The notes beneath the pieces were generated by a model. The model saw only the letters and a list, made by a program, of their open reading frames with translations. It ran no database searches and was not told the DNA's origin. From NCBI RefSeq assembly GCF_003334765.1, contig NZ_QOWT01000011.1: 64,000 bases of DNA. One strand, written 5' to 3'. The position numbers and the translations under genes are program-made. Positions 22,085 to 22,161 of the stretch are shown in pieces (the stretch's first letter is position 1; every line of letters starts with the position of its first letter). This stretch comes from Escherichia coli (GTDB taxonomy: Bacteria > Pseudomonadota > Gammaproteobacteria > Enterobacterales > Enterobacteriaceae).

Positions 22085-22161
22085 CGCGGGGTGGAGCAGC
22101 CTGGTAGCTCGTCGGGCTCATAACCCGAAGGTCGTCGGTTCAAATCCGGCCCCCGCAACCA
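22085..22161 (+). tRNA. metY: Initiator tRNA-fMet (anticodon CAT)
   Basis: 77-nt CGCGGGGTGGAGCAGCCTGGTAGCTCGTCGGGCTCATAACCCGAAGGTCGTCGGTTCAAATCCGGCCCCCGCAACCA; initiator-specific C1 and three G-C pairs in the anticodon stem; first gene of the nusA-infB operon. Confidence 0.95.

Follow-up and report, generated by a model that had tools for sequence, protein, structure and literature searches.

In E. coli K-12, the initiator tRNA exists as two sequence types that differ at position 46, tRNAfMet1 with m7G46 and tRNAfMet2 with A46, as stated in the passages of PMC3017606 that cite Mandal and RajBhandary (1992, J Bacteriol 174:7827-7830). In MG1655, tRNAfMet1 is encoded by metZ, metW, and metV (b2814-b2816), which form a three-gene tandem operon between mltA and amiC and are annotated as 'tRNA-initiator Met(CAU)', and tRNAfMet2 is encoded by metY (b3171). 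The m7G46 modification is made by YggH/TrmB, a SAM-dependent methyltransferase (PMC7949028). It is impossible on the product of K-12 metY, which runs as a separate minor species (PMC3017606, PMC8887418) and is resolved from tRNAfMet1 by native gel electrophoresis (PMC3017606, PMC5389676, PMC8887418). The initiator pools of K-12 contain 75% tRNAfMet1 and about 25% tRNAfMet2 (PMC5389676, PMC8887418). For E. coli B, the same passages of PMC3017606, again citing the 1992 study, state that all four initiator genes encode tRNAfMet1. The G46/A46 polymorphism has thus been known since 1992 or earlier, as have its position, its effect on modification, and the fact that E. coli B lacks it.

We analyzed a 64-kb stretch of E. 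coli DNA, hereafter the window, in which ARAGORN called a tRNA-Met gene at exactly 22085-22161 on the plus strand (77 nt), with a CAT anticodon at position 35. The Rfam tRNA model RF00005 matches the same region with 61.4 bits against a gathering score of 29. The folded sequence adopts a cloverleaf in which base 1 is unpaired, and the Rfam alignment likewise flags this base as a non-standard pair. The z-score of its minimum free energy (-0.9) is unremarkable, as is commonly seen when a tRNA is folded without its modifications, and does not speak against the tRNA call. The elements that set initiators apart are all present. There is no Watson-Crick 1:72 pair, since C1 faces A72; such a mismatch is both a determinant for formylation and an anti-determinant for EF-Tu. 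The acceptor stem continues with G2:C71 and C3:G70, and the D-stem carries A11:U24 (A at position 11 and T at position 24 in the DNA), whereas elongator tRNAs have a pyrimidine at 11 and a purine at 24. The anticodon stem contains three consecutive G:C pairs (G29-G30-G31 with C39-C40-C41), the CAU anticodon occupies canonical positions 34-36, and A73 is followed by an encoded CCA.

The variable loop reads AGGTC at 22129-22133, corresponding to canonical positions 44-48. Because the D-loop of E. coli tRNAfMet contains one additional residue, 17a, linear position 47 corresponds to canonical position 46, and the base at 22131 (MG1655 coordinate 3318243) is therefore G46. The original prediction had read the loop in the same way, and both its coordinates and its reading proved right. 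By the base encoded at position 46, G rather than A, the gene belongs to the tRNAfMet1 sequence type.

The surroundings identify the gene as metY. It is a lone initiator tRNA gene at the head of the metY-rimP-nusA-infB operon, with argG divergent from it (20394-21737, minus strand), and this order is collinear with the annotated metY loci of MG1655, REL606, and strain H3. In contrast, the metZWV locus of K-12 is the tandem operon described above, and the present locus is not of that kind. Downstream on the plus strand lie rimP (22368-22820) and nusA (22848-24335), followed by infB; all these protein-gene coordinates, including those of argG, were mapped from the MG1655 annotation. A consensus scan revealed two sigma-70 promoter-like sites upstream on the plus strand. 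The distal one, at 21963-21992 (TTGACA, 18 nt, TATAAT; 12/12 matches), lies about 90 bp upstream of metY within the argG-metY divergent region and is identical in MG1655; from its sequence it may function as a promoter. The weaker proximal site, at 22040-22069 (TTTGCA, 18 nt, TAGAAT), ends 16 nt before the mature 5' end of the tRNA and, judged from its position, is the putative metY promoter. Between metY and rimP, the Rfam rimP leader RF01770 was found at 22250-22350 on the plus strand (102 bits against a gathering score of 47), and a terminator scan placed two terminator-like hairpins in this leader, at 22283-22306 and 22331-22343, with a T run after each. The second of the two tRNA genes called by ARAGORN in the window, a tRNA-Leu(GAG) gene at 18216-18302 on the plus strand, corresponds to leuU downstream of secG and shows no difference from MG1655 within the gene in a 59-kb alignment.

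When the tRNA was aligned with metY, metZ, metW, and metV of MG1655 and with metY of REL606, a single column differed, and in MG1655 metY only. The latter gene, which has the same location, orientation, and neighbors, shares 76 of 77 bases with the gene in the window and carries A instead of G at position 46, as the original prediction had stated for K-12; the possibility that MG1655 has the same base there, which would have refuted that prediction, is thus eliminated. All 424 flanking bases are identical, so that the 501 bp from 21900 to 22400 differ from MG1655 at position 46 only. The metZ, metW, and metV genes of K-12, located elsewhere, match it at 77 of 77 nucleotides. The metY gene of the E. 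coli B strain REL606 is also identical and sits at the same locus, in agreement with the expectation that E. coli B carries G46 there. The chromosome around it shows 289 differences from the window in 50 kb. For comparison, a 59-kb alignment of the window with MG1655 contains 11 changes, 10 of them substitutions and the last an indel of 1 bp. We conclude with near certainty that 22085-22161 is the chromosomal metY in its ordinary, ancestral G46 state, with the sequence of the tRNAfMet1 encoded by metZ, metW, and metV. Part of the divergence from REL606 is concentrated at about 5597-5669, where some 20 differences fall within about 70 bp while the surrounding DNA differs by about 0.5%. These coordinates map to the ispB-sfsB intergenic region, and the cluster may reflect either a short recombined patch or a variable repeat.

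The frequency of both alleles was surveyed in 5,426 complete E. coli genomes. The exact 77-nt A46 tRNA was found in 365 of them, and the other 5,061 contained only copies with one mismatch, which bears out the claim that many other strains have G46. An 86-nt metY-specific probe carrying the G allele matched 4,699 genomes exactly, and its MG1655 version matched 365. About 360 genomes were exact for neither 86-nt allele; the three sampled among them all had G46 together with a C-to-T change at 22176, a polymorphism in the metY 3' trailer, 15 nt after the 3' end of the tRNA. Since the 86-nt probe had left these genomes unassigned, the alleles were counted again, once with only the tRNA and once with a 40-nt probe centered on A46, which is unable to seed on G46 sequences under megablast. 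Both recounts gave 365 of 5,426 genomes, and the 40-nt probe was found exactly once per genome, always on the chromosome and never on a plasmid. About 93% of the complete E. coli genomes are thus in the G46 state. Each complete genome contained between 1 and 8 tRNAfMet genes (median, 4); four copies of the gene were found on plasmids, and the K-12 derivatives J53, ME8067, and C3026 have only two.

Among the 365 A46 carriers, some 110 distinct genomes, drawn from the 60 best matches and from a set of 60 spread evenly, were inspected by name; nearly all are laboratory derivatives of K-12 by name or source. They include MG1655, W3110-type strains, DH10B, DH5alpha, DH1, MC4100, C600, J53, HB101, XL1-Blue, EMG2, and NBRC 3301, along with O16:H48 mouse-gut passages. 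Four genomes bear natural-source labels, namely, SF10 (duck), EC06 (human gut), THB42-F4 (transconjugant), and USML2 (oil palm). Over 40 kb, each of these four differs from MG1655 at 0-5 positions, and all have every SNP that separates K-12 from the window in that interval. Natural carriers of A46 outside K-12, as labels such as duck, human gut, dog, or oil palm might suggest, were rejected on the basis of these 0-5 mismatches. With about 110 of the 365 genomes known by name and four checked by sequence, A46 is apparently confined to the K-12 clone.

The state of position 46 outside the species points the same way. A 31-mer around position 46 carrying A46 had no match among 100,044 GTDB species, each represented by one genome. 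The same 31-mer with N at position 46 matched at least 120 loci among the species representatives, and all 188 matches listed carry G; these include Enterobacterales, among them Escherichia albertii, as well as Vibrio, Pseudomonas, Shewanella, and others. Since the listed outgroup matches all have G46 and A46 is absent from the species representatives, G46 is apparently the species-wide and ancestral state, and A46 would have arisen by a G-to-A change on the K-12 branch. We consider it very probable that A46, and with it tRNAfMet2, is a private mutation of K-12 that occurs in no independent natural E. coli lineage. If this is true, the two initiator tRNA species that textbooks ascribe to E. 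coli would be peculiar to a single laboratory strain, and only one initiator species would be made by wild E. coli, including the strain of the window. Such a reading takes further what was stated for E. coli B in 1992 and involves no new biology.

The presence of G46 had also been taken, together with an intact aga cluster, to indicate a non-K-12 lineage. Across the 64 kb, the window differs from MG1655 by 13 substitutions (over about 62 kb), one 1-bp indel, and a segment in the aga region, and is otherwise 99.98% identical. All twelve aga/kba open reading frames (agaI, agaD, agaC, agaB, kbaY, agaS, agaA, agaF, agaE, agaW, agaV, and kbaZ; 53348-63764, minus strand, from the H3 annotation) are open in the window, so the cluster is indeed intact. 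A BLAST search of the MG1655 region against the window showed that MG1655 lacks 59307-61601 (2,295 bp), which comprises the 3' part of agaW, agaE, agaF, and the 5' part of agaA. This segment restores full-length agaW, agaE, agaF, and agaA; the MG1655 annotation lists agaW and agaA as pseudogenes. The window's strain thus retains the 2.3-kb agaW'-agaA' region deleted in the K-12 clone, has G instead of A46 in metY, and lacks five other K-12 SNPs. It is identical to strain H3 (human feces, Mexico; NZ_CP028732.1) at 63,999 of 64,000 bases, and the close phylogroup-A relatives listed at about 100% identity, including H3, ML35, VR50, and E. coli C, all have the sequence of the window at metY. The inferred lineage therefore stood in that the K-12 clone is excluded by G46 and the intact aga cluster, and it needed refinement in that G46, being the default in the species and in related bacteria, excludes the K-12 clone only and identifies no particular lineage. 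The window's strain is a phylogroup-A-like, very close relative of K-12, not of B type, and is essentially strain H3. The 1-bp indel lies in yraJ (minus strand, about 50605), which has one G fewer than MG1655 (at 3289769). This fimbrial usher gene is annotated as a frameshifted pseudogene in H3 and is identical in the window.

The edges of the aga deletion of K-12 (59300-59310 and 61596-61606) share a short GGTCGC microhomology, and the K-12-type junction was found in 371 genomes, six more than A46. This count was rejected as an exact proxy for K-12, given that the chicken isolate BS-01 has the junction yet carries G46. At metY, BS-01 does not resemble K-12 (42 differences in 5 kb), and the combination of the junction with G46 and a non-K-12 metY indicates that the aga deletion either recurred or was transferred.

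The closeness of the window to K-12 leaves room for a different history, in which G46 was restored in a former A46 lineage, either through back-mutation or through gene conversion with metZWV as the donor. Only the 13 substitutions mentioned above separate the window from MG1655, and three identical G46 donor copies (metZWV) are available in every genome. However, A46 was found in the K-12 clone only (365 genomes, with every sampled one K-12-like), the remaining close phylogroup-A relatives listed share the sequence of the window, and the listed outgroup matches are uniformly G46. A single G-to-A change on the K-12 branch is also more parsimonious than a gain followed by a loss, and we regard a restored G46 as very unlikely. 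A sequencing or assembly error at 22131 in what would be a K-12 genome deserves even less credence. It is true that a single base stands out in a 501-bp stretch that is otherwise that of K-12, but the same 501 bp occur at 100% identity in many independent genomes. Moreover, twelve further substitutions, the 1-bp indel, and the 2.3-kb segment separate the window from MG1655, and all but one of its 64,000 bases agree with H3, which excludes such an error. It is just as implausible that the gene encodes an elongator tRNA-Met, for which the only argument is that ARAGORN and RefSeq label it simply as tRNA-Met. The initiator identity elements exclude this reading, since A11:U24, the mismatched C1/A72, and the G:C triplet of the anticodon stem are all present, and the gene is identical to MG1655 metZ, metW, and metV, which are annotated as initiators. 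An ancestral G46 in an initiator tRNA gene, changed to A on the K-12 branch, remains our preferred reading.

From what is established for E. coli tRNAfMet, metY would be transcribed from the predicted sigma-70 promoters just upstream, and the 5' end of its precursor would be cut by RNase P while the 3' end would be trimmed to the encoded CCA. The tRNA would then be charged by MetRS through its CAU anticodon and recognized by the formyltransferase owing to the C1/A72 mismatch together with G2:C71, C3:G70, and A11:U24. IF2 would bring the initiator to the 30S P site, and its entry there would be licensed by the three G:C pairs of the anticodon stem; direct placement of the initiator tRNA in the 30S P site is known to need these pairs (PMC5389676, PMC3017606). 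By its full identity with the characterized tRNAfMet1 (PMC3017606), the metY product is probably formylated and used in the ribosomal P site in vivo. Its G46 is a likely substrate of TrmB/YggH, giving m7G46 (PMC7949028, PMC8887418), and by analogy with other tRNAs this base is expected to rest on the C13-G22 pair in the tRNA core. In K-12, the G-to-A change at 46 would have produced the unmethylatable minor species tRNAfMet2. The strain, with metZWV and trmB outside the window, probably makes a single initiator species, and expression, processing, and m7G46 methylation of the metY product are likewise predicted from sequence.

No functional difference in initiation between the G46 and A46 forms is claimed in the cited literature, and a physiological consequence is therefore not expected. 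The observation is real and was correctly read; it is also ordinary and matters little. The one addition made here is a census of A46, which occurs in 365 of 5,426 complete genomes, apparently always in the K-12 clone, and in no species representative. Position 46 of metY is nonetheless a handy one-nucleotide marker that distinguishes K-12 derivatives from other E. coli, even from very close relatives, and tRNAfMet2 (A46), on which most plasmid-borne metY constructs and structural work are based, is a K-12 variant and not the norm of the species.

The sole difference between the window and H3 over 64 kb lies at 56164, in codon 14 of agaB (minus strand), where the window has T and both H3 and MG1655 have G. 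It changes Arg14 (CGT) of AgaB to Ser (AGT) within the RIDNRLVHGQ motif, three residues before a histidine that we take to be the phosphorylated histidine of the IIB domains of mannose-family PTS. A 71-nt probe spanning 56164 had no exact match in the 5,284 complete genomes that hold the segment, and Arg14Ser may be either a private mutation impairing the galactosamine PTS IIB or a base-call difference.
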